Shown: positions 11,060-63,070, counted from the stretch's first letter. The stretch: 64,000 nt of DNA from an uncultured Rhodothermaceae bacterium (GCA_964525535.1 CAZGHT010000004.1:23902-87901), one strand, 5' to 3'. Made by a program: numbers and translations. The notes: generated by a model from the letters alone, not told the origin.

Positions 11060-11095
11060 GATGTTACGCAGGTTGTGCACCGTTCGCGTAACATC
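11060..11095. repeat. 36-bp mini-copy of the GATGTTACGC-terminated palindromic element family
   Basis: GATGTTACGCAGGTTGTGCACCGTTCGCGTAACATC. It has 10-bp perfect terminal inverted repeats and only the two arm stubs, with no central module. Lies in the divergent promoter region between 10978(-) and 11261(+). Confidence 0.75.
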
Positions 11096-11260
11096 CATTA
11101 TAAAGATAAAGCTACGTGAATACCGGTCATTTGACAAGTCCAAACCCCGTACATGGGTACGTAAAAGCGGCGGGCTTTGACCGTAACCATTTTCCGCCGT
11201 ATTATTTGGGAGTATGGACCCGATGTGTTCTCTACCCCCCTCCCAAGAATCTGTAGTCCC

Positions 11261-11734
11261 ATGAATAAAATCGTACTCATCCTTGTCGGAATCGTAGTTC
11301 TGGTGCTCGCTGGTATCCAGTTCGTTCCCGTAGAGAGGACAAACCCCCCCATCGTCGATGAAGTAGAATGGAACAGCGAGGAGACGAGGGATCTGGCCAA
11401 GAAAGCCTGTTTCGACTGTCACAGTAACGAAACCATATGGCCCTGGTACGCTTACGTAGCCCCGCTGTCTTTCCGCATTGCACACCATGTGAGCCATGGA
11501 CGAGAACATCTGAACTTTTCGGATTGGACGCAGCCGAACGAAGATTTCGACGAGATCAAGGAAGTGATCGACGAGGGCGAAATGCCTTTGTGGGATTATG
11601 TGCTCATGCATTCCGATGCCGAGCTGACGCCGGAGGAAACGAAGGCGTTATTGGCGGGGTTTTACGAAACTTACCGGGCGGATCCTCCCGTGGAACGCGG
11701 CCAGCGTGCTCCTGACGCCGCCTCCGACGAGTAG
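11261..11734 (+). CDS. heme-binding domain (Haem_bd-like) membrane-anchored protein
   Basis: ATG at 11261 gives an N-terminal TM helix (IVLILVGIVVLVLAGI), then FVPVERTNPP...CFDCHSNET..WPWY...HLNFSDW...EMPLWDY, as in the PF14376-type heme-binding domain. Confidence 0.75.
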   Translation: MNKIVLILVGIVVLVLAGIQFVPVERTNPPIVDEVEWNSEETRDLAKKACFDCHSNETIWPWYAYVAPLSFRIAHHVSHGREHLNFSDWTQPNEDFDEIKEVIDEGEMPLWDYVLMHSDAELTPEETKALLAGFYETYRADPPVERGQRAPDAASDE

Positions 11735-11782
11735 CAGGCGCCTTTTTCACCCTTATCTCCTAGCCCTAAAAATATTGTGACC

Positions 11783-14383
11783 ATGATCACCCGCCTCTCG
11801 ACGTTGCTCTGTTTGATTCTTCTCATCGCATCCTGCCGGAACACGAAGCTCACGGGCGATGCCGAGGAGGCGCCTGAGCTCACCTTGCCCGACGGTTTTA
11901 CGTACGAACACCTGTATTCCCCTTCCGAGGCCGGGCAAGGTACCTGGGTGGGGCTGACCTTTGACGACGAAGGCCGGTTATACGCCGCGGACCAACACGG
12001 ATATATCTATCGCATGGACAAGCCAGGGTCGACGAGTCCGGCGGATTCAGCGAGACGGATCGCCCTCGAGATCGGCGAGGCCAATGGATTATTGTGGGCG
12101 TTTGACGCGCTGTACGTTGTCGTTAATGACCGAGAGGGCCTTGGGGGGCATAGCAGCGGCATTTACAGAGTGACTGATACGGATGAGGACGACGAGCTCG
12201 ATGCGATCGAAATGCTGCACCAATTCGAGGGCGCTGGAGAGCATGGTCCCCATTCTCTCATTTTGAGCCCGGACCGTACGGCCCTGTATTTTATAGCAGG
12301 TAATCATACCGATGTGCCGGAGGTCTACACGTCCCGGCACCCCGGGGCGTGGCGCGAGGATCAACTGCTCCCGGCCATGGTCGATCCCAGGGGGCACGCC
12401 AACGACCGGAATGCCCCCGGTGGATGGATTGCGCGGATGGATCCGGATGGTAATGCGTTCGAGATCGTCAGCAGCGGCTACAGGAACGCGTACGACATTG
12501 CGTTCAACGAGGATGGGGAGTTGTTCACGTTCGACTCGGACATGGAGTGGGATCTCGGCATGCCCTGGTATCGGCCGATCCGGGTATGCCACGTTACGAG
12601 TGCGAGTGAATACGGATGGCGAACCGGGTCGGGGAAATGGCCCTCCTATTATCCAGACAACCTCCCTTCCGTAGTCGATATCGGCCAGGGTTCGCCGACC
12701 GGGGTGCTCATGGGATCAGGCAGCGCCTTTCCGGCCAGATATCAGCGCAGCCTGTTCGTTTTCGACTGGAGCTTCGGTACGATTTATACCGTACAACTCG
12801 AACCGCGGGGCAGTTCCTACACCGGCTCCTTCGAGGAATTCCTGTCGGGGGTGCCGCTGCCGGTAACCGACGGAGTCTGGGGCCCGGATGGGGCGCTCTA
12901 TGTTGCTACCGGCGGGCGTCAGCTGGATTCGCATCTCTACAGGGTCAGTTATGACGGGGACGAATCCATTGCAACGGTCGACGGCTCCAGCGGGATGTCC
13001 GAGCTGCGTCACGTGCGGCGTCATCTGGAGCGGTATCACACCCGTGTAGACCCCGGGGCCCTCGACGTCGTCTGGCCCTACCTGAATCACGACGACCGGT
13101 TCATACAATATGCGGCCCGGCTGGCCGTCGAGCGGCAGCCGGTAGCCGGCTGGTGGAGGAGGGCGGTCGAAGAAGAGGATCCCACGCGTCGCCTCCAGGC
13201 CATTGTGGCCCTTGCGCGGAGAGGCGAGCCTATGCATCAATATGTGGCGCTCAAGGCCCTGACCGAGTTGCCGTTCGAACGCCTGTCGATGCCGGACAAA
13301 TTGAATCTCTTACGGGCGTACAGCCTGGTTTTTATTCGCCTCGGCGAGCCCGCCGACCACTGGAAGGCTACCGTCGCGGCGTCCCTGATGCCGCATTATC
13401 CTGCAGATTCGTATGTACTCAACAAAGAATTGTCCGTCGTATTGGCCTACATGAACGCCGAAGGGGTGGTCGAAAAAACGCTGGAATTGTTGCGTTCGGC
13501 CGCGACGGAGCGCATGGCAGTGCCCATTTTGACTGAAGAGCTCACTGCCCGAAGCGATCAATACGGGGAAGCTATCGAGAATATGAAGGAGAACATGCCG
13601 TCGGCTCCGGAGATTGCGTATGCGTACGCACTGAGTCACGTCACAGACGGATGGTCCCTCGATCAGCGAAAAGAATACCTGCAGTGGTTTTACGACGCTA
13701 TGGCCCGGAGTGGAGGGCGCAGCTATGTGGGATTCATCGATCAAATTCGGCGTACAGCGATCGATCATATCCCTGGCGGCGAGCGAGAAGCACTGGCCGA
13801 ATACGTCGTTGAATTCAACCAGCCGGCCCTCGACCTGACCCGCCTGCCCCAGCCGGAAGGCCCGGGAGAGAACTGGCTTCAAGGGCAGGTCAAAGACTTC
13901 GCGGACGACTACATGGAGGAGACGTTGCGCAATTTTGAGCGCGGGCAGGCGATGTATGCAGCCGCACTGTGCGAGGCCTGCCATACCATGAATGGGATGG
14001 GAGGCAACATCGGCCCTGACCTGTCGACCATCGGCACGCGCTTCAGCCGCAATGATCTTATCGAGGCCCTCATTTCACCGAGCGACGCGATATCCGATCA
14101 GTACGCGGCTACCGTTTTTACGTTGAACGATCAGGGTACGGTAGTCGGGCGGGTCATTCAGCGCGATGAGAACACCATCGAGGTCAACCAGAATCCCTAC
14201 GATCCCTCTCAGGTGACGACGATCTCGCAGGAGGACGTAGTGGATGAAAGCCCGTCTCCGGTGTCGATTATGCCGGCCGGCCTGCTCAATCGGCTGAATC
14301 AGGATGAGGTGCTCGATTTGCTCGCGTTTCTCGTAGCCAACGGGAATGCCGAGCACGAATTGTTCAAAGAAGAGGCGGAGTAG
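11783..14383 (+). CDS. beta-propeller dehydrogenase-like / HEAT-repeat / c-type cytochrome fusion (PVC-type heme-binding protein)
   Basis: Lipoprotein-like signal (LLIASC). N-terminal sugar-dehydrogenase-like propeller region, central helical repeats, C-terminal CEACH (CxxCH) heme motif followed by GPDLSTIG. Confidence 0.85.
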   Translation: MITRLSTLLCLILLIASCRNTKLTGDAEEAPELTLPDGFTYEHLYSPSEAGQGTWVGLTFDDEGRLYAADQHGYIYRMDKPGSTSPADSARRIALEIGEANGLLWAFDALYVVVNDREGLGGHSSGIYRVTDTDEDDELDAIEMLHQFEGAGEHGPHSLILSPDRTALYFIAGNHTDVPEVYTSRHPGAWREDQLLPAMVDPRGHANDRNAPGGWIARMDPDGNAFEIVSSGYRNAYDIAFNEDGELFTFDSDMEWDLGMPWYRPIRVCHVTSASEYGWRTGSGKWPSYYPDNLPSVVDIGQGSPTGVLMGSGSAFPARYQRSLFVFDWSFGTIYTVQLEPRGSSYTGSFEEFLSGVPLPVTDGVWGPDGALYVATGGRQLDSHLYRVSYDGDESIATVDGSSGMSELRHVRRHLERYHTRVDPGALDVVWPYLNHDDRFIQYAARLAVERQPVAGWWRRAVEEEDPTRRLQAIVALARRGEPMHQYVALKALTELPFERLSMPDKLNLLRAYSLVFIRLGEPADHWKATVAASLMPHYPADSYVLNKELSVVLAYMNAEGVVEKTLELLRSAATERMAVPILTEELTARSDQYGEAIENMKENMPSAPEIAYAYALSHVTDGWSLDQRKEYLQWFYDAMARSGGRSYVGFIDQIRRTAIDHIPGGEREALAEYVVEFNQPALDLTRLPQPEGPGENWLQGQVKDFADDYMEETLRNFERGQAMYAAALCEACHTMNGMGGNIGPDLSTIGTRFSRNDLIEALISPSDAISDQYAATVFTLNDQGTVVGRVIQRDENTIEVNQNPYDPSQVTTISQEDVVDESPSPVSIMPAGLLNRLNQDEVLDLLAFLVANGNAEHELFKEEAE

Positions 14384-14888: not shown

Positions 14889-15107
14889 GGCCGTCTCGTC
14901 GTATGTATCGGGGCGAATATGCTAAAACGAATAGATTCGTAATGGGCCGTTTAACGCAGCCAGGTGCAGCATAGTTCGCGCATTCAGATCATTCAGGCGC
15001 CCTCTCGAGAGAGGATGCACGCCGGTTGATGTACAGGCAGCTTGATCGAGAGGATTACAACGCATACATTGATGATGTATGTTTATCGTGGATGATTTTC
15101 CCCTGAT

Positions 15108-18413: not shown

Positions 18414-18507
18414 GGGGCGACCTGAATCTCGAACGATTTGCGTTTATGATTTGCGTTTGACGTCAAACCGAACCATCATTCACACTAAACCGCAATTTGC
18501 ACCAACC

Positions 18508-19956: not shown

Positions 19957-19977
19957 TCCGAATCGGCATCGACTCGT

Positions 19978-27144: not shown

Positions 27145-27573
27145 AATGTGTAGCGATCATGTGTTGTACAGGATGAAAGGCGGGGGGAATTGAGACTCAT
27201 TAAGCGGTGTTACGCGCAGGATAGATTATCCAAAGCGACGGACGGGACGTCCATGCGGTTTACACAATCCGGTGACAGGCATGAAAAGGTCTCACAAGGC
27301 ACGATGAGCTGCCCGGGTTGCTCGAAAAGCGGAATCGATCTTTAGCGAGTGCGCCTTGTGATTGTACGATCCATACGTGTTATTAAATCAACGGGCGGCA
27401 TCCGCTTATTATTGCGTGGCGCATCGGAAAAATGAATACCCGGTGTGCTTTCTGGCGGCGCCCGGAGTATATTAGGGTGTGTGGACATTCAGCGGCAGGA
27501 ATGCTCGGTCAACGAGGGTGTACAGCATGCCCCACGAGGTCCTGGCAACGATTGCGTACCAGCACATATGAAT

Positions 27574-27704
27574 GGATGTTGCGTATCTGTGCGTTATCGT
27601 TTTGCCCGGACGGCTTTGAATGCGCGCATATAGCTGAATAACGGCTGCAAGGCAGTCATTCAACGCCGGCAAAACGGGGTGCTGTGCACAACCTGCGTAA
27701 CATC
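27574..27704. repeat. 131-bp copy (subfamily 2) of the GATGTTACGC-terminated palindromic element
   Basis: Left end GGATGTTGCGTATCTGTGCG; right end GCTGTGCACAACCTGCGTAACATC. Nested internal stems (CGTTTTGCC.../...GGCAAAACG and GGCTTTGAATG/CATTCAACGCC). Ends 29 nt upstream of the TRAP SBP start codon. Confidence 0.75.
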
Positions 27705-27732
27705 ACTTACGAAATTAGCGTGTCGCAGCACT

Positions 27733-38700: not shown

Positions 38701-40015
38701 GGGGAATCCTATGGAAGGAGAGCTCGCCTTCGGTGGGTTCAGCTATGGGTGGCGACAGGTCGTGATGCCTCTCCCCGGAAAAGAAGAAGTACGCTTGCGA
38801 TTTGACTTCGGGACGGATCTGGACAACGCCGGCGGCCGCCGGCCGGCAGGGTGGCACCTCGATGATCTGTCTGTCGTCGCCGAATTGACAGAAGACCCAT
38901 CCTATCCACGCGCCGTTCAGCTTCCCGAAGCGGTGAGAGTGCGAGATGTGGGAGCTGCGCCGCCCCCCGTTTTTGCGAATATATTCGATAACGTGGGCCT
39001 GTCGGAAGTACAGGTGGAATATACATACCACGATATCGATGCTGGGGAACAGGAAGGGATATTCCGCCTCGTAATGGATTCGACGCTGATCTCCGGATTT
39101 TATGGAGCTTTTCCAGGTGATTACTCTCAGGCACAGGTTGGAGACAGCATCACTTATCGATTTGTGGCCAGGGATTTTGCAGGAAATACATCCGTGTTCC
39201 CGAATCGACTCCAGCCGCCACTGCGCGTCGAGTACAGGCTGCGAGATCGCATCAATCTGCTGACCCGCGTTCAAGCAACCGGACTATGGCGAAGAGAAAA
39301 CGACCTCTGGCTGGTGGAAAGCTCGGATGTTATAGCGGGCGTATCGAGTCTGGTTGTCGGTCCGGTCGATCTGCCCCGAGACGTCGATCAGATAGCGCTT
39401 TCTATGGCTTTCGAGCAGTTAATCGCCGAAAACCATGGAGGCAATGTCAAATTTTCTACGGATAGCGCTCGTCAATGGCGTGTTTTGCTTCCAGAGTCAG
39501 GGTATGACGAAACACTCCCGGATGATGTGGGGATCCCAGAATCAATGAGGGGAGAAGAAGTGTTCAGCGGGCCCTGGATCGGCATCAGAGAGGTTAAATT
39601 CGACCTGGCAGACTATGCAGGGCAGCAACTCTGGTTCCGTATAGACTTTGCCACGGATGAGACCCCGGCCCAGAATGAAAAATGGCAAATCAATGAAGCA
39701 TCGATTCATTACAGTTCGCTCGTAGCCGTCGATGGGGAGTTCGATATCCCGCGAACCTTTGCCTTGCACGGCAACTTCCCTGACCCGTTTTCTTTCTCGA
39801 CCACGATCTCGTATACCCTTTCTCAAGCTTCGGACGTGCGTCTGGAACTGTTCGACGTGCTCGGAAGAAAAATTCAGACCCTTCTCCAGAGTCGCCAATC
39901 TGCCGGCAGTTATTCTCTGCTCTACGACGGTTCCCGTTTGTCGCCCGGCCTGTACCTGCTCCGGCTGGAAACAAACCAGGGTCATGATGTGGAACGTATC
40001 CTCGTTACGAGGTGA
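35783..40015 (+). CDS. large secreted M36 (fungalysin)-like zinc metalloprotease with T9SS C-terminal sorting domain
   Basis: Signal peptide. FTP/PepSY-like propeptide region. HEYGHALLE plus downstream EGWADYW (third ligand, as in M36). Two ...GGNVK(V/F)STD... modules. C-terminal FPDPFSFSTTISYTL...LELFDVLGRK...GLYLLRL (T9SS CTD). Confidence 0.85.
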   Translation: MLYRWFYRRRVIRSVFVVVCAWGFMLGNAQAQTPPSQKPVNPGPQTVNALMQQSDTLIQYRTRPATNGRIDVETGAFRALYRQQEAPVPGPFTSPARQALAYVHTYEALLGVESPLTTLREHSTVSTPYSHHVTYRQYFEGIPVYNSYVKVNLNREGEVTLVLNGYASHVNTTPLSSMQPVLTEQMAMERARSELAATIVDTSTPERVIVPSKPARLAWRMVAWTSNPSRELDILIDARDGALLAIYPLSTHAHRASGHTESDAASPGVGPAQPGNRSVTSERHLAETFVEPLARAVGTGYVFDPDPLTTSSRFYGPPFVDGNDAGVSEVDAERILVQLPDITQGGDGLYRLIGPHVQIVGTTARGGVNYEPPAVSSPDDFRFSRSEPFFEAVNAYYHIDKSQRYVQSLGLGRDIQNVSLRVNPHGMGDEDNSQYSSFQNFIEFGLGGVDDAEDAFVIWHEYGHALLEGSAPGLLGTFEGRALHEGWADYWAASYSREIQELNASHRSDWQSFFKWDSGDGTIWAGRQLGFAGTYPDDVYCDEGGFFCDIYADGMLWATTLMQVYDVLGRTITDRLNLASHIYLAPPLTFRDAAEAVIQADVDLYGGAHIGFLAQLFAERGLVTNTLGPVIVHEPLKATEQLEGTVPLRVEATGLFSEIERVFVVYTHPGADADTLDLAINADSVFVANLPLPSTPGSVSYYIGAFDELDLFTTDPLGAPGQLYSFDVGPDTSPPTIQHTPLTTLAISDWPASVSADVQDNLSVDSVQVMYYVEDPAGNRVDEDQFGLKFTSAGYRGTFPTSLDLIQPGSTVFYQIRAIDEAQAQNVAVDPESDYHSFDVVLKDGLFVEYDIERDEPGVVKSGSWARGEPAYGLRVAHSGRNVYATHPAAPYQEISQRSSLTLPPVNLQGIEQAYLVFWHWFEIEHAGDATPDGDSSAVLWDGGNVKVSTDDGATWDVLSPLTGYNGRIAEGRGNPMEGELAFGGFSYGWRQVVMPLPGKEEVRLRFDFGTDLDNAGGRRPAGWHLDDLSVVAELTEDPSYPRAVQLPEAVRVRDVGAAPPPVFANIFDNVGLSEVQVEYTYHDIDAGEQEGIFRLVMDSTLISGFYGAFPGDYSQAQVGDSITYRFVARDFAGNTSVFPNRLQPPLRVEYRLRDRINLLTRVQATGLWRRENDLWLVESSDVIAGVSSLVVGPVDLPRDVDQIALSMAFEQLIAENHGGNVKFSTDSARQWRVLLPESGYDETLPDDVGIPESMRGEEVFSGPWIGIREVKFDLADYAGQQLWFRIDFATDETPAQNEKWQINEASIHYSSLVAVDGEFDIPRTFALHGNFPDPFSFSTTISYTLSQASDVRLELFDVLGRKIQTLLQSRQSAGSYSLLYDGSRLSPGLYLLRLETNQGHDVERILVTR

Positions 40016-40123
40016 CGTTGCGCGAACGGTGCACAGTCCGCCATTTCGACGGTTGTGAGGTTCGCTCAGCAAACGGAAGCCGTTTAGGCCGGGCCTTGCG
40101 TAGCCGTCACGGAAGTGTAACGC
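40014..40123. repeat. degenerate copy of the GATGTTACGC-terminated element
   Basis: The left end GACGTTGCGCGAACGGTGCACAG matches the subfamily-1 arm GATGTTACGCGAACTGTGCACAG at 20/23 positions and begins inside the protease stop codon (TGA 40013..40015). Central AAACGG-AAG-CCGTTT hairpin. Right end poorly conserved (GTGTAACGCC). Confidence 0.4.
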
Positions 40124-44559: not shown

Positions 44560-47500
44560 ATGTCTTATAAGCAGCACCCCCTTCTGCGCTGCATGGACGA
44601 TGGGGCCCTCTGGCCCGCAGTGCTTTTTCCCATCCGTGTAGTGCTCCTTTTCCTTCTCTTAGTCACGGTACATCCTTTCCGGATCAGTCTGGCCGATGGG
44701 AGCAAAGAACTCAATGCGAGGACGGGATATCGTTCCTATCTTATCCAGGCTTCAGAGGACCAGCTCACGGGCATCCTTCTGTCGAATCGTTTCTACGTGT
44801 ACATGGAGCCGGGAGAAAGGATGCTGCTCGGCTCAAGCGCGATAGGCATCGGGGAAGGCGATATCCGCGTAATAACGCCTGATGGGATAACGAAGACGTG
44901 CCTCGAAGTTTTCGGAGATGCCCGAGAGCCCCTGGCAGGGCGTATCATGAATCTGGATCAGGAGCAGGCAGGGCCTGATCCTAAGTCGGGGGGGTATATT
45001 CCCTGTACGTTCGTCAATGAGTCGCCGGCATCCGGCATCTGGGAGGTCCAGTTTCTCTCCCCGCACCCTGCATCCTGGAAGTCATCCCGGCCGTTGCCGG
45101 CGCAGGTCGACTGGCGCCAGGCATCGGATGTGAATACAATTGCTGCCTGGGATGTTACCGTGCAGGGAGACCGGGGAATGGAGCAAAGCGGCCGTGTTTT
45201 TGCCGAACAGATCCCCCTGCACTTCGGCGAGGAAGCTCCCTCGTTTTCAGCGCTTTTTTACCTTCTCACTGGAGATGGCTACGCGTATGAAGTGGTGCTA
45301 CATAATATACAGACTCATACGTTCATTCTGTTTTCAAACCGGGATGGCTTCCAGGATGCCACAACCCGTCTACCGCTGTACAAATCCGTTCCCCTTGACT
45401 GGTCAAATGTTGCCAATAAGGAGTTGCCCGAAGGGGTAACGCACGAGACCCCCGGGATCTCAATGAATGGAAGCGGGGCAATACATAAAATCTTTTTTTC
45501 ACCGCCGAGCCCCTTGATCGAGGGCCAGATTCCGTTTTCTGGAGGTTTGGCTCGCTTTCGAAGGAGTCCTCGATTACCAGGTAGTGCCACCACCTTTCAT
45601 TTCACAGGCCGGTCTGGAAAGGGAGGGAGTTTTTCCTTCAACGCCGTGTCCGATGGGCGTTACCAGATTATCATCGATCTCAACAACAACGGTATATGGG
45701 GCGATGCCAGCGATCGCATGCTGCATGGCTTTGCCCAATCGGGGATCCATCATGTGGTTTGGGATGGTCTGGATAGCCATGGAAGGGCGGTGCATACCGA
45801 TGAGAATGGGTATCTTGCGCGACTGGTATTCACGGCGGGCGAAATGCATCTGCCCTTTCTGGATGTGGAGCAGAATGCTCGCGGCATCAGCATAACACGG
45901 CTCAATGGTCCCCGCGCTCCGGAATCAAGCGCCTATTATGACGATTCGATCCTCTCGAACGTGGGTGCTCAAACGGGTTCCGTTAAGCGGCTGGGGGGCG
46001 TCAGTAGCCGATCAGGCGCCCATGCGTATCCAGAAGGATTCGGGAATGGCGCCGGGATCGATACCTGGAGTTATGCGGTTTCGGATCCGATCGAATTGGA
46101 ACGTGCTCTGCTTCGTACCGAAAGCGACTTACGCATCTCGTTGTCCAGTGAATCGGACGCGCCGGCCAGGAACGAACCGTTCGACGTGTCCCTGTTCGTT
46201 CACAATGACGGTCCCGATACTTCGTCAGCCGCCCGCGTTAAACTAACCCTACCGGGTTCTTTTCGCCTGCAATCATCGGCAGCATCAACAGGCTATTTCG
46301 ACACGTCGAAATCAGAGTGGATCCTGGAGCGGGTGCCCGTGGGAAAAGACGAACGTCTCGTGCTGACGCTCATTGCCAGTGAAGGAGGGACCCTGCCGAT
46401 TTCGGCTGAAGTGATCGATGTGCTGGGGTACGATCCAGACTCCACTCCCAACAATGCACTCGATCCGGGCTCGTCCTCTCCCGTCGAAGACGACACGGAC
46501 GAAATGTTCTTCTATGTAGATGCGAAGCCTGCGATAGGCATTGCCCAGCGTGTTTCGCAGCCGGTTGGTGCAGCATCAGGCTTTGAAACGGAGGTGGAGA
46601 TCCTGGTCGAAAATCTTGGCAATATCCCCCTGTCTGAGCTCCAACTTCAAGCCCTGTTGCCCGAAGGCCTCCAGGGAACAAGGTATACCGTTTCGGAACC
46701 CGTAGTCCGAGCTCCCTTGCGAGTGAACGCGAATTTCGATGGCAAGGCTGATGCAAACTTGCTTGATCCAGCGAGCACGCTGCATGTTGGTGAAAGGAGT
46801 CTGGTTACATACACGTTGCACGTCGTACCAGAGGAATCGCTGGGGCCGTACCTGTTGTCGGCAAAAGTGCAGGCGCAGGGGCCGGCGGGCCAGTACGTCG
46901 AAGACCTCAGCCATGACGGCAACCGGGTGGATCCCAATGGGAACGGCAGAGCCGACGAACCGGAGGAAAACGATCCAACGGTTCTCACTGTTGATCAAAA
47001 GCCTGCCATTGGGGCGGCACTCGAGGTGATCGAATTGCAAGGGGATCCGACAGCCTTTTCTGCCATTTTTCGGCTAAACATCGAAAATCTGGGAGACGTA
47101 TTCCTCGATTCGATCCAGGTCGAATTGAACCTGGCCAACGTGTTGGGAGCGGATCGATTTTCCATCTCTGATGTGAGGTCGGATCGCTCGCTGTCCTTAA
47201 ATGACGAGTACGACGGCGTTCAGCATACCAGGTTGTTGGAGCCGGTCGAAAGTGAACTGGCCGCAGGTCAGCACGCCACCATCACGTTCCAGATAACGGC
47301 CAGGCCTGCCGTTGCATCGAATCAGTATGCGTTTCAAGCACGGGCGACTGCACTGGGACCCAATCGAGTTTCTGTTGCGGATTACTCGGATCGAGGTCGA
47401 CATTCGGATTCCGATGGAAATCGCTTCGCAGGGGATCCCGGAGAGGGAGATCCCTCGATCGTTAGCTTTGACGAAGTCCCGGCTGTAGGCGCCTCATTGA

Positions 47501-50500
47501 GGGCACGTCGAGTTTCGGGCGACCTGAGCGGATTTACCGTACACTACGAACTCCAAATAACAAATATCGGGAAAGTCACTCTGTACGACATCCAGGCCCT
47601 GCAAGACCTGGAGAGACCTTTCGCTGGCACTCGCTTCACCGTCTACGATCTGTCCTCCCAGTTTACGGTGAGGGTGAACGACGGGTTCGACGGCGTCGTA
47701 CAGAAGGGTCTCATTGACGAAATCAACATACCGCTTGTGCCCGGAGCGTCGATACAGGTTTCTTATTCCGTAGACGTCCACCCAGAGACCCAGTTCGGCC
47801 CGTTTGAGAATTCGGTTTTTGTTACGGCGAAAAGCTTCGATGGCCGTGAGACGTCGGACGTGACGGATGGACAGGGACCCATCGACGAAAATGGGAACGG
47901 AATAGCCGATGAGCCTGGAGAGAATGATCCACATCGCATTCAGTTTGCCCCCGAGTCGGGACTCGGATCGGCCCTGTTCATCAACGAGGTAAAAGGAGAC
48001 TTTCGGGATTTTGTAGTGGATTACACGTTCGTTCTAGAGAACATGAGCGACGTCAAGCTTACCTCCGTTGATATCACACAACGGCTGGATACCACATTTA
48101 CGGGTTCTAGAGTACGGGTCCTGGAGGTTCTTGCCGAGCGGCCTCTTCAGGAGAATCCCCTGTTTGACGGTATAGAATATGCGCAACTGCTGGCAGCTGA
48201 TTCAAGCAGTTTGTCCCCGGGCGAAAAAGCAGCGGTGAAAGTCAAGGTCCAGGTTACACCCGAAACGTATTTCGGCGCCTTTTATCTAGGCGCTGCGGCC
48301 TCTGGGGTGACTCCTTTTGGAACACGTTCCCACGACGTCACAGACTCAGGTATTTCGGTCGATCCAAACGGAAATGGGATCACCGACGAGGTCGGAGAAA
48401 ACGATCCTGCTGTATTATCGTTACACGAAAAACCGGTCATCGGGTCTTCTATGACGGCTCGTGTGTTAGAAGAGGACGATGCAGGCTTTCTGGTCAGGCA
48501 CGTGGTTCGAGTAGGAAACCTGGGCGATGTGCCGCTGGGTGACGTTCAGGTAGAGATGGACCTGGCTGAATGGTACGAAGGTGCCGATGTGGATGTGCTA
48601 CGAACGTTCGTGAGAGGCGCCGTGGTTGCAAACGCCTCTTTCGACGGCCGGGGTCAAATTCAGGTGCTCGATGCTGGAAACAGTCGCCTGGAGCGGAGCG
48701 ATACCGCGAGGATCGAGGTGTACGCCCACGTAAAACCCGGCTCCAACTTTGGGCCGTACCAGAGCCTGGCACGGGCTTCGGCCTCAGGACCTGGAGGTCT
48801 GAGATCTGTGGATTTATCTGATCGGGGTACCGTGATCGATGCCAATCGCAACGGAACCGCAAACGAAGAGGTCGAGAATGTACCCACCTATCTCAATCCT
48901 CTGGTAAATGCTTCGGTGGGTAGTTCCAGAGTAGTCAGCGAAGCGACCCGACGAGGACCGGGGGAGTATGCCGTTACATTCAACCTCGCAGTTCAAAACG
49001 TAGGCGATGTGCCTTTGAGAGAAGTGCGCATTATCGAGGACCTGAAGTCCCTGTACGAGGGCTCGAGCGCGAGCGTCCACGCCGTGTCGATCCGAGGAGA
49101 ATCGGCATACAAAATCAACCCTGACTTCGATGGCGTCTCCGACACAAACCTGATTCTACCAGACACCGTGCTCCTTTATCCCGGTGAGCGTATCGAAGTA
49201 GAGCTCGAAGAACGGATAACACCCGCAGAAGGTGTTGAATTTCTAGAGACCTTTTCTCGGGTAACAGCCGTAGATCCACATGGGAATACAGTCCAGGATG
49301 TTTCGATCGATGGTTTCGAGCCGGACCCGAATGGGAATGGAAATGCCTCCGACGAAGGTGAGGACGTTATGACGCGCATCGAACTGGTGCAGCAGGCAAA
49401 GCTGGGGCTCGAAACTCGTATGGTAGAAGTTTCCGGCGATACGACGTCTTTTCGAGTAGGGCTGCGAGCCTATGTGTCGAATCACAGCCCCGTTGAGCTG
49501 GACAATGTTGAACTCGAACTGGATTTGTCGGAGGCCTTCCCGGTATCGAGTGTGGATGTGAAAGAGATAACTATATCGGGTACGCCATCGTTGAAGGTTC
49601 ATCCTGAATACGACGGGAAAACGACAACAAATTTGCTGCATCGGGAGGACAGTCGGCTTGCCCCGGGAGAAGTGGGGACGGTGGCAATTTCATTCGAGGT
49701 GACCCCCGATGCCTGGAATGCGCTTTACGAAGTCGCCATGAGAGCGACGGCGGTGCCCTCGTCGGAGCAGGAAGGAGTGACGAGCCCCGTCGAGATATTG
49801 CCCGTGACGATAAAAACAAGCTCGGGAAATGACGCAGGGTTGGAGTCGAATGGTGATCTGGCCGGCCTCCTCGCGGAACGCATGTACCGACGACAGCGCC
49901 GTCGCGTCGATCATTCGATCAACCAAACAGGCGCTCTACACCTGGAGACGTTGAGGGCATCCGGGCCAGCGAGCATGCTTGGTACCGGTGGACCGAGAGC
50001 GGACGATCTTCTCCATCTGATCCCTGAAGTCGGTCCTGACCGGTCAGAGGCCATCGTGGTGACCCCTGGCGATTTGTTTGGTGTCACCAATGCCACCAAC
50101 GTTGTTGCCGTCGATTACGTCAGTCGCCAAAGCCGCCTGGCCGGTATATTTGCTACCACAACGCCGGCCGGTGAGACCTACGAACATACCAAAACTGTGT
50201 GCGATCGGCTGAAAGGTGCAAGCTTGAAAGGGGTCAATCTCGTCTCGATAAAAGGCCATCCTTTTGTCATGTCTATTCTGGTTAATCAGGATGGGGAGGT
50301 GGATTATGCGATCAGCTTCATCAATTATCGAAAGGGCAATAGTCATCTGATCGACAGCCGTTTTGTGCGCGATCAGTACAAGCCAGAGCGGGTGACGACC
50401 GAAGAGATTATCAATGTTCAGGTCTGGTCCTTCCATCCCGAACATACGATTTGGCTCGTAGAGCGCATGCTCGAGCAGATGAGTGAACTCGGAAACGTGG

Positions 50501-51579
50501 CCTTTGTGAGCCGCGAAGGAGATATCCCGAAGGCCCCCTCGTCCTTTGTGTCGACCGGTGCGTACCATAGTGGGGAGCTCAATATCACGATCAAAAGGGT
50601 TCCAGGGGGAGGCGCCTATCGATTGTCCGGCGAGCTTTCTCGCACGGAAGGCGGTGCCAGGGATCCTTTCGAATTTACCGCTTCGCACGGTCCATCTGAG
50701 GGAGAGTCCTTCTTTGTGCCGGTTTCAATTAATACAGGGGCGCTGTACGATGCTACCCTTTTCCTGACTAATGAGGCGAATGAAATCGTGGATCAGGTAT
50801 ACATCGCTGACGGGGGTTGGGGGCATATCCTGGAGGACAGCGAGGAGACGTCCATAGAAATATACGAAATCCTGGCTCAACCTGATTATGACCCCAGCGA
50901 GACGCAGTATGTCGTAGAAAGGGGGGTTCATTTCAAGGGTACTTTGAGAGACAGTGTACTCTTCTTCAGACATTTCAAGCCCGGCGGGACGCCTGTTGAC
51001 TTGAGCCCCTACGATTATGTGACATTTGCAGCAGCAGGCAGAGGGAAAGGAAAAATGCGACTCGAGACCGAAGACGGAAAAGTCTTTGAAGAGGACCTTG
51101 AGCTGAACTCGACCTCGACCGCCTACAATGTCTCGTTCGAGGAGCTGTCGAAGAAGTACGAAGGCAGGTCGTTCAACAGCAATGCGCTGACATCCATCAG
51201 TTTTGTAATGACTTCACCAGGGGAGAATGACAGGCAGGTAGAACTGCGCGTGGAGGGGATTACTTTTGAGCAAGGGCAACCCGTATCGGCCGAGAAGCCT
51301 CACCCCTCTATCCCAGAACGATACTTTCTAGATCAGAACTATCCGAATCCGTTTAATCCTCTGACGAACATCCGATTCGGCCTGCCGGAAATGTCGGCGG
51401 TGAAGCTGGAGCTGTTCGACCTGTTGGGGCGAAAAGTCTGGACGATGGCCGATCAGGTGTATCCTCCAGGAATACATGTTATCCCGTTGGAGGCCGGCCA
51501 TCTGGCCAGCGGAGTATACGTGTACAGGATGAAAACAAAGGATCAAGTGTTTACGAAGACTCTACAGCTTCTGAAATAA
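44560..51579 (+). CDS. giant T9SS-secreted surface protein with DUF11-like / Ig-like tandem domains
   Basis: 2339-aa uninterrupted ORF. N-terminal hydrophobic segment. One canonical DUF11-like domain (LRISLSSE...VSLFVHNDGPD...). Seven tandem ~159-aa domains separated by D-x-NGNG-x-x-DE-x-x-ENDP linkers. C-terminal QNYPNPFNPLTNIRFGLP...LELFDLLGRKV...GVYVYRM (T9SS CTD). Confidence 0.88.
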   Translation: MSYKQHPLLRCMDDGALWPAVLFPIRVVLLFLLLVTVHPFRISLADGSKELNARTGYRSYLIQASEDQLTGILLSNRFYVYMEPGERMLLGSSAIGIGEGDIRVITPDGITKTCLEVFGDAREPLAGRIMNLDQEQAGPDPKSGGYIPCTFVNESPASGIWEVQFLSPHPASWKSSRPLPAQVDWRQASDVNTIAAWDVTVQGDRGMEQSGRVFAEQIPLHFGEEAPSFSALFYLLTGDGYAYEVVLHNIQTHTFILFSNRDGFQDATTRLPLYKSVPLDWSNVANKELPEGVTHETPGISMNGSGAIHKIFFSPPSPLIEGQIPFSGGLARFRRSPRLPGSATTFHFTGRSGKGGSFSFNAVSDGRYQIIIDLNNNGIWGDASDRMLHGFAQSGIHHVVWDGLDSHGRAVHTDENGYLARLVFTAGEMHLPFLDVEQNARGISITRLNGPRAPESSAYYDDSILSNVGAQTGSVKRLGGVSSRSGAHAYPEGFGNGAGIDTWSYAVSDPIELERALLRTESDLRISLSSESDAPARNEPFDVSLFVHNDGPDTSSAARVKLTLPGSFRLQSSAASTGYFDTSKSEWILERVPVGKDERLVLTLIASEGGTLPISAEVIDVLGYDPDSTPNNALDPGSSSPVEDDTDEMFFYVDAKPAIGIAQRVSQPVGAASGFETEVEILVENLGNIPLSELQLQALLPEGLQGTRYTVSEPVVRAPLRVNANFDGKADANLLDPASTLHVGERSLVTYTLHVVPEESLGPYLLSAKVQAQGPAGQYVEDLSHDGNRVDPNGNGRADEPEENDPTVLTVDQKPAIGAALEVIELQGDPTAFSAIFRLNIENLGDVFLDSIQVELNLANVLGADRFSISDVRSDRSLSLNDEYDGVQHTRLLEPVESELAAGQHATITFQITARPAVASNQYAFQARATALGPNRVSVADYSDRGRHSDSDGNRFAGDPGEGDPSIVSFDEVPAVGASLRARRVSGDLSGFTVHYELQITNIGKVTLYDIQALQDLERPFAGTRFTVYDLSSQFTVRVNDGFDGVVQKGLIDEINIPLVPGASIQVSYSVDVHPETQFGPFENSVFVTAKSFDGRETSDVTDGQGPIDENGNGIADEPGENDPHRIQFAPESGLGSALFINEVKGDFRDFVVDYTFVLENMSDVKLTSVDITQRLDTTFTGSRVRVLEVLAERPLQENPLFDGIEYAQLLAADSSSLSPGEKAAVKVKVQVTPETYFGAFYLGAAASGVTPFGTRSHDVTDSGISVDPNGNGITDEVGENDPAVLSLHEKPVIGSSMTARVLEEDDAGFLVRHVVRVGNLGDVPLGDVQVEMDLAEWYEGADVDVLRTFVRGAVVANASFDGRGQIQVLDAGNSRLERSDTARIEVYAHVKPGSNFGPYQSLARASASGPGGLRSVDLSDRGTVIDANRNGTANEEVENVPTYLNPLVNASVGSSRVVSEATRRGPGEYAVTFNLAVQNVGDVPLREVRIIEDLKSLYEGSSASVHAVSIRGESAYKINPDFDGVSDTNLILPDTVLLYPGERIEVELEERITPAEGVEFLETFSRVTAVDPHGNTVQDVSIDGFEPDPNGNGNASDEGEDVMTRIELVQQAKLGLETRMVEVSGDTTSFRVGLRAYVSNHSPVELDNVELELDLSEAFPVSSVDVKEITISGTPSLKVHPEYDGKTTTNLLHREDSRLAPGEVGTVAISFEVTPDAWNALYEVAMRATAVPSSEQEGVTSPVEILPVTIKTSSGNDAGLESNGDLAGLLAERMYRRQRRRVDHSINQTGALHLETLRASGPASMLGTGGPRADDLLHLIPEVGPDRSEAIVVTPGDLFGVTNATNVVAVDYVSRQSRLAGIFATTTPAGETYEHTKTVCDRLKGASLKGVNLVSIKGHPFVMSILVNQDGEVDYAISFINYRKGNSHLIDSRFVRDQYKPERVTTEEIINVQVWSFHPEHTIWLVERMLEQMSELGNVAFVSREGDIPKAPSSFVSTGAYHSGELNITIKRVPGGGAYRLSGELSRTEGGARDPFEFTASHGPSEGESFFVPVSINTGALYDATLFLTNEANEIVDQVYIADGGWGHILEDSEETSIEIYEILAQPDYDPSETQYVVERGVHFKGTLRDSVLFFRHFKPGGTPVDLSPYDYVTFAAAGRGKGKMRLETEDGKVFEEDLELNSTSTAYNVSFEELSKKYEGRSFNSNALTSISFVMTSPGENDRQVELRVEGITFEQGQPVSAEKPHPSIPERYFLDQNYPNPFNPLTNIRFGLPEMSAVKLELFDLLGRKVWTMADQVYPPGIHVIPLEAGHLASGVYVYRMKTKDQVFTKTLQLLK
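46525..49815 (+). repeat. seven tandem intragenic domain repeats (period 474-486 nt, four consecutive periods exactly 477 nt)
   Basis: Unit starts anchored on the (K/V/E)P(A/V)(I/V)G motif at 46525, 46999, 47476, 47953, 48430, 48907 and 49393. The end of the last unit is approximate. Confidence 0.8.
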
Positions 51580-52468: not shown

Positions 52469-52503
52469 GAGTCGTTACGTGGTTGAGTGTTGCTTTGACG
52501 AAC

Positions 52504-52602
52504 GGATGTTACGGGCCGGATGTGCATATGCCCTGCCAGAGCGGTTTCACACGTATGCAAAGCCGCGTAAACCAGTTTCTTGAGCCCAGTTCGCGTAACA
52601 TC
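52504..52602. repeat. 98/99-bp copy (subfamily 1, diverged) of the GATGTTACGC-terminated element
   Basis: GGATGTTACGGGCCGGATGTGCATATG...CCAGTTCGCGTAACATC. 82/98 identical to the 62178..62275 copy in the same orientation. The central hairpin is degraded. Lies in the divergent region between 52468(-) and 52684(+). Confidence 0.8.
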
Positions 52603-52683
52603 GCTGACGAAGAGAAAAGACGTGTTTTGTGTTTCCTGTAAAACCCTTATGTTGCCTTTATTGAGGCAAGGTAAATTGCACCC

Positions 52684-54675: not shown

Positions 54676-54711
54676 GTGCATCGAGTGGGTGTAAAGAGGT
54701 TTAATTAATCG

Positions 54712-55700: not shown

Positions 55701-55754
55701 CGGTAGTGACCTCGTTTGCCTGAGTAGACAAAGGGCGAGGGTTCGCGAATGGGT

Positions 55755-56027: not shown

Positions 56028-56122
56028 AAAACAATGAAATAATTAAGCAATATTTTCTTCTCTCAATAACAATTATCGGGCCAGAACGAGATCTTTAAAT
56101 AAGAAAAGCTCAAATAAGTCAT

Positions 56123-56222
56123 GGATGTTACACAGGTTGTGCACAGCAATACTATAAAACAGGCGTTGACCGAAGCGAAATGCCTTCGCGGCAGCTCTTT
56201 TGCGCACAGATGCGTAACATCC
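56123..56222. repeat. 100-bp copy (subfamily 2) of the GATGTTACGC-terminated element
   Basis: GGATGTTACACAGGTTGTGCACAGC...TGCGCACAGATGCGTAACATCC. Both arms match the arms of the 27574..27704 copy in inverted order. Different central module (CGAAG-N8-CTTCG). Confidence 0.8.
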
Positions 56223-56232
56223 ATTAGTAAAT

Positions 56233-56330
56233 GATGTTACGCGAACTGTGCACAGCAGCCTGGTTGACGCGGCTTTGCAACCGTGCAAAGCCGCTCGGGT
56301 AGCACGTATGCGCATCCGGCGCGTAACATC
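56233..56330. repeat. 98-bp copy (subfamily 1) of the GATGTTACGC-terminated element
   Basis: GATGTTACGCGAACTGTGCACAGCAGCC...GCGGCTTTGCAACCGTGCAAAGCCGC...GTATGCGCATCCGGCGCGTAACATC. 94/98 identical to the reverse complement of 62178..62275. 11-bp perfect TIRs and an 11-bp central stem. Confidence 0.9.
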
Positions 56331-56454
56331 TGTATTAATGGGGGACTGTGGCCGGCGGCCGATCGTGGAGTTGTCTCATAAGCAATTACGAAAATACCTC
56401 TTTGAGTATCATGCTGTATGAGTTTGCCGAGGGACTGGCCATCATGCCGCCTTT

Positions 56455-57954: not shown

Positions 57955-57962
57955 CGTGATTT

Positions 57963-59976: not shown

Positions 59977-60181
59977 GCTCTGATCATACGATCAGAGTTC
60001 GCGCAACCGGTACGTGGCGCTCAACGGAGATCATCGCCGCTCGATTCGCGCCTTGTGTTTCTGACCTGTACGGCAGGGTACGCACCGGCTCAAAAAATTT
60101 TGATTTACGTGGGAGCAATGCGTTATCTTCCTGTGATTTTAGAGGAACTTGAAGAATTGTACTATAAAGGAGGTATCCTAC

Positions 60182-60529
60182 ATGCCTTATGTTGTCACCG
60201 AATCGTGCATAAACTGTAAACACACGGACTGTGTAGAGGTATGTCCGGTGGATTGTTTTTACGAAGGGCCTAACTTCCTTGTGATTCATCCTGACGAATG
60301 TATCGATTGTAATGCATGCGTCCCCGTGTGTCCTGTCGAAGCGATTTATGCAGATGACGAATTGCCTGAGCATCTCAGCCATTATGCCCAGTGGAATGAA
60401 CATCTCGCTAATAAATGGCAGGAACTGGACAAAAATATAACCGAAAAAATGGATCCTCTCCCGGATGCGGAAGAATGGGCCGACAGAGATAAGTCGGAAG
60501 AGGATATCCTGGACTGGGATACAGAGTAA
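60182..60529 (+). CDS. fdxA: ferredoxin, 7Fe (3Fe-4S + 4Fe-4S) FdxA type
   Basis: [26 protein letters not shown] ... [19 protein letters not shown] at 60182 is preceded by AAGGAGG. Confidence 0.9.
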
Positions 60530-60597
60530 TAGCACATTTCGAAACGTGCTATTTCAGGGCATTCTACCCGATGCGAGTGGTTCAACCGGTAATACGT

Positions 60598-60629
60598 ACA
60601 ACAGCGCCGCATTCGTGCGGCGCTGTTGT
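60598..60629. terminator. 14-bp perfect stem with TTCG loop between convergent fdxA and ahcY (terminator-like; no U-tract)
   Basis: ACAACAGCGCCGCA-TTCG-TGCGGCGCTGTTGT. Confidence 0.45.
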
Positions 60630-60684
60630 CAGATCGGAGCTTCTCTGTCCGGAAGACAGGATAGGAGATCGTGAGGTGCGGTGA

Positions 60685-61962
60685 TCAAGTGCCGGCAGAA
60701 TAATCTGTGGCATAGGTCGTTTGATCGTCCGTAAGTGCATCGATCTCGATGCCCATCGTACGGAGTTTAAGTTGAGCAATTTCCTGATCCAGGGATACGG
60801 GTAAGTCGTACACGGCAGGGCTCAATGTGTCGCCGTTTTTGTGAGATTCTGCAAGAGACAGATGAGCCATGAACTGGTTTGCAAAGCTCATGTCCATCAC
60901 TTCTGAAGGATGGCCCTCGGCAGCAGCCAGGTTGACGAGCCTTCCATCTGCAAGGACGAAAATTTTCCGCCCCGATTCGAGTGTGTACTCCCGGTTGTTT
61001 GCGCGGATCATACGGGCGTCGTTGGACAATTCTGCGAGTTCCTTCAAGTTCAGTTCGACATCGTAGTGCCCTGTATTACATACGATTGCGCCGTCTTTCA
61101 TGCGGGCAAAGTGGCGGCCTCGGATCACATTCTTCATCCCGGTAGCGGTAACGAAGATGTCTCCGATTTCGGCAGCCTCATCCATGGGCAGCACTCTGTG
61201 GCCTTCGAGGGTGGCCTTAAGGGCATTGGTGGGGCGTACTTCCGTGATGATGACATTGGCGCCTAGCCCTTTGGCTCGCATTGCCACCCCTCGGCCGCAA
61301 TGCCCATACCCGGCTACGACGAAGTTCTTGCCGGCAACAAGTACGCTCGAGGCGCGCAATATGCCATCGATGGTGCTCTGGCCGGTTCCGTACACATTAT
61401 CGAAGTCCCATTTTGTCTCCGCATCGTTGACGGCGTAGATGGGATAGAGCAGTTTGCCGTCATCTGCCATGGCGCGGAGCCGGTGCACACCCGTTGTCGT
61501 TTCTTCGCTGCCTCCTATAATATCGTTGGCCTTTTCCGGGAAACGGTGGTGTACCGTGAAGATCAAGTCGGCGCCGTCATCAAGGGTTAACTGAGGCGTT
61601 TTGTCTATTGTGCGGTCGATGCACCAGTAAAATTCGTCGGTGGACATACCATGCCAGGCGTATATTTCGATGCCTGCTTTGGCCAGGGCAGCTGCCACTT
61701 CATCGTTCGTGCTCAGGGGATTGCATCCACTCCAGGAAACTTCCGCACCGCAGGCGGCAAGCGTCTCACAAAGTACAGCCGTTTCTTTCGTGACATGCAG
61801 ACAGCCGGCGATTTTGTAGCCCGTGAACGGTTTGGTTGCTGCGTACTTTTCTCTAAGGCTCATGAGAACGGGCATTCTGCTCTCGGCCCACTCTACTCTG
61901 AGCCGTCCGGCATCGGCCATACCCAAGTCTTTTACTTTGTAAGCGCCTTCTTTGTAGTCCAT
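60685..61962 (-). CDS. ahcY: adenosylhomocysteinase
   Basis: 425 aa, colinear with AhcY. NAD-binding VAGYGHCGRGVA; conserved DDGAD, EETTTGV, NLAAAEGHP. Confidence 0.97.
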   Translation of the reverse strand: MDYKEGAYKVKDLGMADAGRLRVEWAESRMPVLMSLREKYAATKPFTGYKIAGCLHVTKETAVLCETLAACGAEVSWSGCNPLSTNDEVAAALAKAGIEIYAWHGMSTDEFYWCIDRTIDKTPQLTLDDGADLIFTVHHRFPEKANDIIGGSEETTTGVHRLRAMADDGKLLYPIYAVNDAETKWDFDNVYGTGQSTIDGILRASSVLVAGKNFVVAGYGHCGRGVAMRAKGLGANVIITEVRPTNALKATLEGHRVLPMDEAAEIGDIFVTATGMKNVIRGRHFARMKDGAIVCNTGHYDVELNLKELAELSNDARMIRANNREYTLESGRKIFVLADGRLVNLAAAEGHPSEVMDMSFANQFMAHLSLAESHKNGDTLSPAVYDLPVSLDQEIAQLKLRTMGIEIDALTDDQTTYATDYSAGT

Positions 61963-62177
61963 ACGTTAATAAATCGGTTAGATTGAGGTGATCCAGTGTA
62001 AACGTACCGGGGAAAGCAAGGGCGGTTGTTGCCAGTCCAACTGGCAGATTGATGCTATCGAACTCGACATTGAATTCGACATGGTAGATCAGAGGCCGTT
62101 TACTTTCCAAGTCGTTCATTCTATACAACTGCGACCACCTGTAGTTGCCAAAGAATGAAAATTCACTTCATTTTACA

Positions 62178-62275
62178 GATGTTACGCGCCGGATGCGCAT
62201 ACGTGCTGCCAGAGCGGCTTTGCACGGTTGCAAAGCCGCGTAAACCAGGCTGCTGCGCACAGTTCGCGTAACATC
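62178..62275. repeat. 98-bp copy (subfamily 1) of the GATGTTACGC-terminated element
   Basis: GATGTTACGCGCCGGATGCGCATACGTGCTGCCAGAGCGGCTTTGCACGGTTGCAAAGCCGCGTAAACCAGGCTGCTGCGCACAGTTCGCGTAACATC. Flanked by CATTTTA on both sides (62169..62175 and 62278..62284). Confidence 0.9.
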
Positions 62276-62537
62276 ACCATTTTAGAAGGCTGTTGATACA
62301 TTCCGTATCTCATCGTTGCGCGCCGCATTCACACTTCGACGCGACGCCTCGATCTACGAAATGTCTCCGTCGGCCTTTGCCGAGACTCTTTTAACAGCCT
62401 TTTCGTGGTTGTGCGTCTGGGTGACCCAGCCTATCTTCAAGGAAGACGGCCGTGCGGTAGTATGGATCAGTCGCAACTGGCCTGGCTAGGATTCGTATGT
62501 TATCTCGACCCCAGTCATTAGTTTTTAGGTGAAACCC

Positions 62538-62921
62538 ATGTTCGGTCCATATCTCTGGATCCTGATTCCACTGTTGATTCCCATATTTGGTATCATTGCC
62601 GGTGCATTCACGGAGTGGCTCAAGTTCAAGGAAAAACAAAACCAGCTGGGTACTTCAACCAGTAAGCTCGAAGGCGAAGTGAAAAAATTGTTGAAGGCCG
62701 TAGAACAATCTGAAGCCCGGCAGACCGCTCTCGTCGAACGCATTCAAAATTTGGAAACGATTGTGACCAGCGCGGAATGGGATGCTCTTGAAGTGCACCC
62801 CAAAACGAGGGGTATTTTGGATGACGGTCCGGATAACGCACATGAAACTCTTAACCTCCTCGACGATAAGCGTGATAAGGTAAATGAGGTAGCAAATATT
62901 GCGCGCCGATTACCCGTATAG
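62538..62921 (+). CDS. small membrane-anchored coiled-coil protein (PspB-like C-terminal motif)
   Basis: ATG at 62538 is preceded by AGGTGA. One N-terminal TM helix, then a helical region with ERIQNLETIVTSAEWD reminiscent of PspB. Weak assignment. Confidence 0.45.
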   Translation: MFGPYLWILIPLLIPIFGIIAGAFTEWLKFKEKQNQLGTSTSKLEGEVKKLLKAVEQSEARQTALVERIQNLETIVTSAEWDALEVHPKTRGILDDGPDNAHETLNLLDDKRDKVNEVANIARRLPV

Positions 62922-62946
62922 AAGGTTCGCCGCGTCTTTGTTCGCT

Positions 62947-62962
62947 TCCGGCGCGTAACATC
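62947..62962. repeat. end fragment of a subfamily-1 element
   Basis: TCCGGCGCGTAACATC followed by TGTA is identical to the right end of the 56233..56330 copy. The rest of the element is absent or unrecognisable. Confidence 0.5.
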
Positions 62963-62975
62963 TGTAAGGAAGTAA

Positions 62976-63070
62976 GATCGCGCCAACTGTTCACAACAGG
63001 GGGGGAATGCGGCTTTACTTTCCTGCAAAGCCGCTCTTTCAGGACCTATGCGCACCCGGTGCGTGACAAC
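62976..63070. repeat. degenerate 95-bp subfamily-1 element
   Basis: GATCGCGCCAACTGTTCACAACAGG...GCGGCTTTAC-N-TGCAAAGCCGC...CTATGCGCACCCGGTGCGTGACAAC. Colinear with 56233..56330 but with indels and substitutions. Ends 10 nt before the ndh start. Confidence 0.6.

Follow-up and report, generated by a model that had tools for sequence, protein, structure and literature searches.

Classical miniature inverted-repeat transposable elements, or MITEs, are hairpin-forming, intergenic and multi-copy, and are presumed to be mobilised in trans by the transposase of an insertion sequence (IS) (PMC10969869, PMC6382973, PMC4853749). Here, a family of short palindromic elements in a 64-kb stretch of DNA from an uncultured Rhodothermaceae bacterium (Rhodothermales; CAZGHT010000004.1:23902-87901) was compared with such systems; the whole 64-kb stretch is referred to as the window. 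The window elements resemble Correia of Neisseria, Nezha of cyanobacteria, MITEAba12 and the Thiomargarita hupL MITE in being short and non-coding, and in having terminal inverted repeats and a target duplication. They differ from the classical MITEs in their ends and in their parent IS family. They differ also in that a 13-nt end is common to about 10 phyla, among the matches listed in a scan of sequenced genomes, with interiors that arose independently.

Among autonomous elements, ISs of the clade modelled by NCBI as NF049921 have ends identical or near-identical to those of the MITEs (CTGATGTTACGCA in Stanieria NIES-3757 plasmid1, CTCACCTTACGCA in Piscirickettsia salmonis p3PS4) and make the same 7-8-bp AT-rich target duplication. 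They are the presumptive parents and mobilising elements. Unlike these ISs, the window elements are 36-130 bp long, lack an open reading frame (ORF) and do not have CT as the outermost dinucleotide; their interiors have only ~13-16 nt at each end in common with the ISs. ISAba11 of Acinetobacter, annotated by PGAP as 'IS701-like element ISAba11 family', belongs to the same broad DDE family and was detected by tblastn with a transposase of the clade (from contig L032, see below), to which it is only ~25% identical; it is a distant cousin. Repetitive extragenic palindromes (REPs) and bacterial interspersed mosaic elements (BIMEs), which spread with REP-associated tyrosine transposases (RAYTs), are likewise dispersed intergenic palindromes with many copies per genome. 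REPs make no target duplication and are HUH/Y1-dependent, whereas the window elements have duplications and a DDE partner.

The window palindromes are very probably MITEs, that is, non-autonomous derivatives of an NF049921-clade IS701-family IS; as part of the same reading, the parent is an element of 1.12-1.20 kb with one DDE transposase of ~350 aa and 13-nt repeats of the form CT[G/C]A[T/C][G/C]TTACGCA. Four things are directly observed and are presented below: the repeats, the duplications of target sites, the sites that are empty in relatives, and transposase genes with the same ends. When the end sequence was looked up literally in the literature, nothing but primers and class 1 integron attI1 came back, and a 2024 review of prokaryotic MITEs makes no mention of IS701. 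Elements of this kind are well known and the parent clade is already modelled by NCBI. The original prediction of an undescribed system, made from the sequence of the window, can therefore not be kept in that form, since the ends belong to a widespread IS clade; the MITE family itself and its spread across phyla appear to be undescribed, ISfinder lying outside this comparison.

The repeat family and its insertion sites

All sites were read directly and a repeat finder was used. The terminal inverted repeats GATGTTACGC/GCGTAACATC are common to all nine sites of the window (A-I) by direct reading and alignment. With one mismatch allowed, 16 matches to GATGTTACGC were counted in the window as against 3.6 ± 1.9 expected, and none of 100 dinucleotide-preserving shuffles reached 16. 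The predicted nine-site family is thus real. Copy B is 27575-27704 and 130 bp rather than beginning at 27574 with 131 bp. The copies, with strand where one is assigned, are as follows.

Copy A, 11060-11095, unstranded: 36 bp, a minimal element in which the two terminal repeats share one TGTGCAC box; between divergent genes for a Met-zincin (minus strand) and a haem-binding protein (plus strand).
Copy B, 27575-27704, unstranded: 130 bp, B/E subfamily, long hairpin; a gene for a DctP-type solute-binding protein follows, its likely ATG ~26 nt downstream.
Copy C, about 40014-40123, unstranded: degenerate, nhmmer E = 0.012; between the stop codon of a gene for a 1412-aa type IX secretion system (T9SS) protease and rnc, its first base lying on the stop codon.
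Copy D, 52496-52611 including duplications, unstranded: 98-bp core 52505-52602, plus 2 nt on each side; between divergent HMGL-like and M1 peptidase genes.
Copy E, 56122-56223, unstranded: 98-bp element 56124-56221, B/E subfamily, in tandem with copy F.
Copy F, 56231-56332, plus strand: 98-bp element 56233-56330 with the central hairpin GCGGCTTTGCA-N4-TGCAAAGCCGC; it follows rpoN and precedes a 90-aa ORF.
Copy G, 62169-62284 including duplications, minus strand: 98-bp core 62178-62275, plus 2 nt on each side; between divergent ahcY and a 130-aa ORF.
H, 62943-62964, plus strand: lone fragment of a right end; over 24 nt it is 96% identical to that of copy F.
Copy I, about 62975-63072, plus strand: degenerate, 98-bp subfamily, nhmmer E = 4e-20; ends ~10 nt upstream of the ndh start codon.

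The copies are related to one another to different degrees. Copy F and the reverse complement of copy G are 96% identical over 103 nt, copies D and G are 83% identical, and copy I matches copy F at 77% over 66 nt. Copies B and E have ~25 nt in common at each end with different middles, and the expectation of subfamilies in which the ends are kept and the middles are not was borne out. A stretch of 26 nt at 11055-11080, made up of five flank bases and the first 21 nt of copy A, is 100% complementary to 27684-27709, where copy B's right end is joined by five flank bases. By nhmmer, with a profile derived from the copies, no additional copy was found in the window. Segmental duplication as the origin of the copies was ruled out, the flanks being unrelated. 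Folding gave stable hairpins for copy F (-50.4 kcal/mol, z -4.5), copy G (-49.8, z -4.1) and copy B (-54.2, z -3.5).

The copies have no coding capacity and are placed between the ORFs of the gene map, and every one of them lies within ~150 nt of a start codon. Their neighbours are ordinary chromosomal genes, such as rpoN, ruvB, ahcY, ndh, rnc, gcvP and genes for T9SS-sorted proteases; the closest named homologues of AhcY are from Rhodothermales or Rhodothermaceae. A location in divergent promoter regions, as predicted, applies to A, D and G. It does not apply to E and F, which lie between rpoN and the co-directional 90-aa ORF, a context that was set using syntenic relatives as a guide.

Target-site duplications are seen at two of the copies. 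Copy D is flanked by a perfect 7-bp duplication, TGACGAA (52496-52502 and 52605-52611), and copy G by CATTTTA (62169-62175 and 62278-62284); in both, the duplications sit 2 nt outside the GATG...CATC core. The flanking 7-mers of the other copies match in part: GTTTTAA/TTATAAA at copy A (4/7 positions), ATATGAA/TTACGAA at copy B (5/7) and TAAGTCA/TTAGTAA at copy E (5/7). The heptamer TTAGTAA lies between copies E and F and is common to both.

Two syntenic relatives, L181 from ENA and L182 from Logan, whose AhcY is 88-89% identical to that of the window, were used to look for empty sites. The gene order ndh, small ORF, ahcY, ferredoxin, ruvB, DUF3109, rpoN, small ORF is conserved in all three and continues with a ~282-aa ORF and the M1 peptidase gene; in L182 the start of the HMGL-like gene is seen as well. 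At the four comparable intergenic sites, L181 and L182 have neither the motif nor an element. The intergenic DNA of the relatives has diverged, and only at the G site could the alignment be followed up to the junction; there, a conserved block (GTAGTTGCCA..GAAAATTCACT...) runs in L181 and L182 exactly to the insertion point and the element is missing. In L182, 94 bp separate the HMGL-like gene from the M1 peptidase gene, versus 215 bp in the window, and copy D with one duplication measures 109 bp. Between the small (130-aa) ORF and ndh the spacer is 3 bp in the relatives (L181 7285-7289, L182 7269-7273) versus ~160 bp in the window (62922-63080), where H and I sit. The 3-bp spacing suggests an operon in the relatives, and the insertion of H/I may have replaced the native translation-initiation region of ndh. 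The orthologous sites are filled in the window and empty in the relatives, an insertion polymorphism. Both checks proposed with the prediction, for empty sites and for target duplications, thus came out in its favour, and with the terminal repeats they agree with its view that the elements are non-autonomous.

Logan metagenome contigs whose encoded RpoN and AhcY are identical to those of the window break off 28-34 nt into copies F and G (L001 1-34, L002 5276-5309, and L180; SRR64629xx runs). Such breaks in short-read contigs of the host population are expected of a high-copy repeat in assembly.

Insertion sequences and MITEs with the same ends

An IS with the same inverted repeats, for which the original prediction had advised a search, was found on a Cytophagales contig (L032). 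On this contig a MITE is followed by TTAGTAA, a heptamer common to both elements, and then by a 1.1-kb element (3550-4658) with the ends CTGATGTTACGCA and TGCGTAACTCCAG and a single 350-aa ORF. With 313.6 bits, the protein passes the cut-off (250) of the NCBIfam model NF049921, 'IS701 family transposase'; it has Pfam matches to DDE_Tnp_1, DDE_5 and the ISC1217-type DDE_Tnp_2 as well. Its sequence shows a Y-(2)-R-(3)-E-(6)-K motif (YQRRWRVEEYHRSLK). At E <= 1e-20 it has at least 1933 homologous protein clusters, mostly on contigs of 1.1-1.5 kb, as expected of a collapsed repeat.

Metagenomic loci encoding relatives of this transposase (45-59% identity) were then inspected for the ends. Both terminal repeats lie within 200 bp of the gene in 71 of the 80 loci. 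The element is 1117-1199 bp long in the 56 loci with clean ends, and the end variants at these loci are CTGATG-, CTCATG-, CTCACC-, CTCACG-, CTGAAG- and CTGGAG-TTACGCA. Complete copies were found on two isolate plasmids, where they are annotated 'transposase'. In Stanieria sp. NIES-3757 plasmid1 the arrangement of duplication, ends and duplication is TTAATTAA / CTGATGTTACGCA...TGCGTAACATCAG / TTAATTAA, and in P. salmonis plasmid p3PS4 it is TTCATAA / CTCACCTTACGCA...TGCGTAAGGTGAG / TTCATAA. Recognition of the ends by a protein, as predicted, is made probable by the many genomes in which a DDE transposase gene is enclosed by the same 13-nt end.

The distribution of paired ends was studied by scanning one genome per species (596 Gb) for GATGTTACGC-N(60-90)-GCGTAACATC, the scan covering spacers of 60-90 nt. 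At least 95 stretches with paired ends were obtained, compared with ~17 expected by chance (own arithmetic, from 20 fixed bases, 31 spacings and 596 Gb). The statements that follow hold among the matches listed, which come from about 10 phyla and include the groups below.

Bacteroidota: four cultured Hymenobacter strains, Spirosoma, Saprospiraceae, Bacteroidales.
Gammaproteobacteria: Methylococcales, Thiotrichales including Thiomargarita, Psychromonas arctica DSM 14288.
Further groups: Betaproteobacteria, Desulfobacterota (Ca. Electrothrix), Chloroflexota (Anaerolineae), Cyanobacteriota (Pleurocapsales).
Also: Acidobacteriota, Verrucomicrobiota, Armatimonadota, Latescibacterota, Ca. Moduliflexus.

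The interiors (60-90 bp) are unrelated between lineages. When all fetched loci were compared with the window copies by blastn, no related interiors were found outside the host population. When 188 ends were pooled, the conserved end extended outward to 13 nt, 5'-CTGATGTTACGCA (C 89%, T 90%), and the flank preceding it was TTAnTAA-like. Perfect duplications of 7 bp flank 39 of 94 copies, those of 8 bp 13 and those of 9 bp two; the flanks are direct and not inverted repeats, e.g. TAACGTG in L035 and TTACAAG in L081.

A mechanism consistent with these results would be the following. The DDE transposase would bind the terminal repeats, excise or copy the element, and insert it at a 7-nt staggered cut in an AT-rich 7-bp target with the consensus TTAnTAA, and gap repair would leave a duplication of 7 bp, occasionally 8 bp. 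Any short DNA between two such ends could be moved in trans, and MITEs may arise repeatedly from pairs of ends. Constant ends with unrelated interiors, between subfamilies as well as between phyla, would be expected because any end-bounded DNA is movable, and copies would gather in promoter-proximal intergenic DNA because of the preference for AT-rich targets. The chemistry may be of the cut-and-paste type, and the elements may be active in the host at present.

Some side observations concern the bearers of these elements. Phages were considered as a vehicle and rejected, as viral contigs hold only one MITE match and one transposase match. The p3PS4 copy (L184, NZ_CP013776.1 18202-19754) lies between phage portal and terminase genes, and of the 392 plasmid records with a match to the transposase, 179 are P. 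salmonis plasmids. The MITE-bearing genomes (L005-L099, among the matches listed) are rich in filamentous, giant or multicellular bacteria, such as Thiomargarita, Ca. Electrothrix, Anaerolineae, Saprospiraceae and Pleurocapsales; the enrichment may be real or due to sampling. In three loci from Saprospiraceae and Bacteroidota metagenome-assembled genomes (MAGs), namely L018 845-933, L025 2160-2307 and L068 7377-7459, nested or tandemly reiterated ends (CAGATGTTACGCAGAT...) occur on both sides of a MITE, with the flanks GCA/TGC instead of CT/AG. Either another variant of the end or the insertion of one element into another may be involved.

Terminal dinucleotides and alternative readings

Several points weigh against a MITE origin from the NF049921 clade. 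By tblastn, in a search covering the window, no transposase of the NF049921 type is encoded in the 64 kb; this agrees with the predicted absence of a transposase, which holds also for the 20 flanking ORFs covered by a Pfam scan. The autonomous copy was found in other genomes only, the host having been searched within the window alone. Perfect duplications are present at only two of the six full window copies, and copy F has none recognisable. Imperfect flanking repeats are found at many metagenomic IS copies as well, with perfect 7-mers in 7 of 56; chimeric assembly of a multi-copy element may be the cause. The duplication lengths in ISfinder are 4 bp for IS701 and 5 bp for ISAba11, and not 7-8 bp. 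The clade makes 7-8-bp duplications and does not share the short duplication typical of IS701; in this respect it is a distinct sub-group.

A further such point is the terminal dinucleotide. CT is the outermost dinucleotide of ~90% of the ends in other lineages, but of none of the 12 in copies A, B, D, E, F and G. The outermost dinucleotides of the window copies are CA, GT, TG, AT, CG and GC, and in the 98-bp subfamily the end with the ATGCGCA box reads 5'-CA in F, G, H and I. Their positions are listed here.

Copy A: 11058-11059 and 11096-11097.
Copy B: 27573-27574 and 27705-27706.
Copy D: 52503-52504 and 52603-52604.
Copy E: 56122-56123 and 56222-56223.
Copy F: 56231-56232 and 56331-56332.
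Copy G: 62176-62177 and 62276-62277.

Plain decay is an unlikely cause of the non-CT termini, because the adjacent 10-mer is nearly intact. Either the cognate enzyme of this lineage tolerates or uses other termini, or the window copies are no longer mobile. The ongoing proliferation suggested in the original prediction is not supported, with no transposase found in the window and CT at none of these 12 termini.

Alternative origins were weighed against the same evidence. The original prediction had left room for REP/BIME-like palindromes mobilised by a RAYT, an IS200/IS605-like Y1 HUH enzyme, acting on folded single strands. The window elements are indeed intergenic imperfect palindromes with stable hairpins, and no transposase of the family lies in the window. 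However, they are flanked by perfect 7-8-bp duplications, which are not a product of HUH-mediated REP spread; there is no GTAG head conserved at their ends, a DDE transposase gene is enclosed by the same ends in 71/80 loci, and no RAYT was seen beside any copy. This alternative fails because of the target duplications and of a partner that is DDE and not HUH/Y1, and we consider it hardly credible. Sites of a tyrosine recombinase (attC-, attI- or dif-like) are given as little weight. The 10-mer GATGTTACGCAG is identical to a stretch printed in papers on class 1 integron attI1. This stretch we take to be an IntI1-bound direct repeat of attI1, and the match is judged coincidental, as orientation, context and target duplications do not fit. 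A superficial likeness to attC also exists, in that imperfect palindromes differing in length have conserved ends, an unpaired spacer and then a second box. The attC consensus is RYYYAAC...GTTRRRY, and the half-site orientation is reversed here (GTTACGC...GCGTAAC). There is no cassette array, no integrase among the 20 ORFs scanned, and the copies are scattered among housekeeping genes; the target duplications together with the DDE partner explain the data fully.

Another proposal adds to the MITE origin that the host copies are immobile and have taken on a regulatory role as DNA or RNA (co-option), e.g. as promoter-proximal hairpins, operators or processing sites. All copies lie within ~150 nt of a start codon, I being ~10 nt before ndh and B ~26 nt before the dctP-like gene, the hairpins are stable, and the 10-mer core is kept while the CT terminus is missing at 12/12 ends. 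Yet an AT-rich target preference alone predicts promoter-proximal sites, the neighbouring genes are functionally unrelated, and the syntenic relatives manage without the elements. A structured RNA or an operator found no support, the 64-kb window giving 0 Rfam matches at gathering thresholds. Co-option is accordingly held to be very unlikely.

Heptamer arrays and implications for annotation

Tandem arrays of TAACTGA in Beggiatoaceae, cyanobacteria and a few Bacteroidetes are unexplained (PMC4679880). Among the matches listed, 93 of the 188 MITE ends outside the window create this heptamer, TAA coming from the target and CTGA from the end; the sample was selected for MITEs. That the element makes the arrays found no support. 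In a small test no enrichment was found, as TAACTGA accounts for only one of the seven arrays (at least 3 copies) in the MITE loci L005-L099, and only two of the seven heptamer arrays resemble the IS end with at most one mismatch, versus ~1.3 expected by our own arithmetic. In a Gammaproteobacteria MAG (CSMAG_1672), (TAACTGA)x3 stands directly upstream of an ATG at a MITE-bearing locus (L086 5071-5091). MITE-bearing genomes often have 7-nt-period arrays of various sequences, such as a long array (ATTACGG)x22 in a Cytophagales MAG (L077 3322-3475) and those in L078, L046, L048 and L067.

A joint reading, in which Rhodothermales have a variant with a free outermost dinucleotide and the clade is linked to the TAACTGA arrays, is speculative and regarded as unlikely. 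Its second part is based on the junction of TAA (target) with CTGA (element end), on the 7-bp length of the duplication and on a similar phylogenetic spread. Its first part, if true, would imply a transposase with altered end cleavage, or copies that are kept for a host function near promoters.

For annotation, the ~100-bp palindromes are best masked, or given the label of MITEs from an IS701-type element, and not read as regulatory RNAs or operators. The MITEs fragment short-read assemblies of the host organism. The copies 10-150 nt upstream of ndh, ahcY and the dctP-like gene may affect the expression of these genes. The CTGATGTTACGCA end bounds both a widespread IS clade and independently arisen MITEs in about 10 phyla (among the matches listed), and the NF049921 clade is thus a convenient system for studying the repeated origin of MITEs from the same transposase.

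Repeats of another kind are also present in the window. Direct repeats spaced 954, 477 and 477 bp at 46936-48885 lie inside the gene for a 2339-aa DUF11/T9SS-tail protein (44560-51579); they are repeated protein domains and unrelated to the MITEs.

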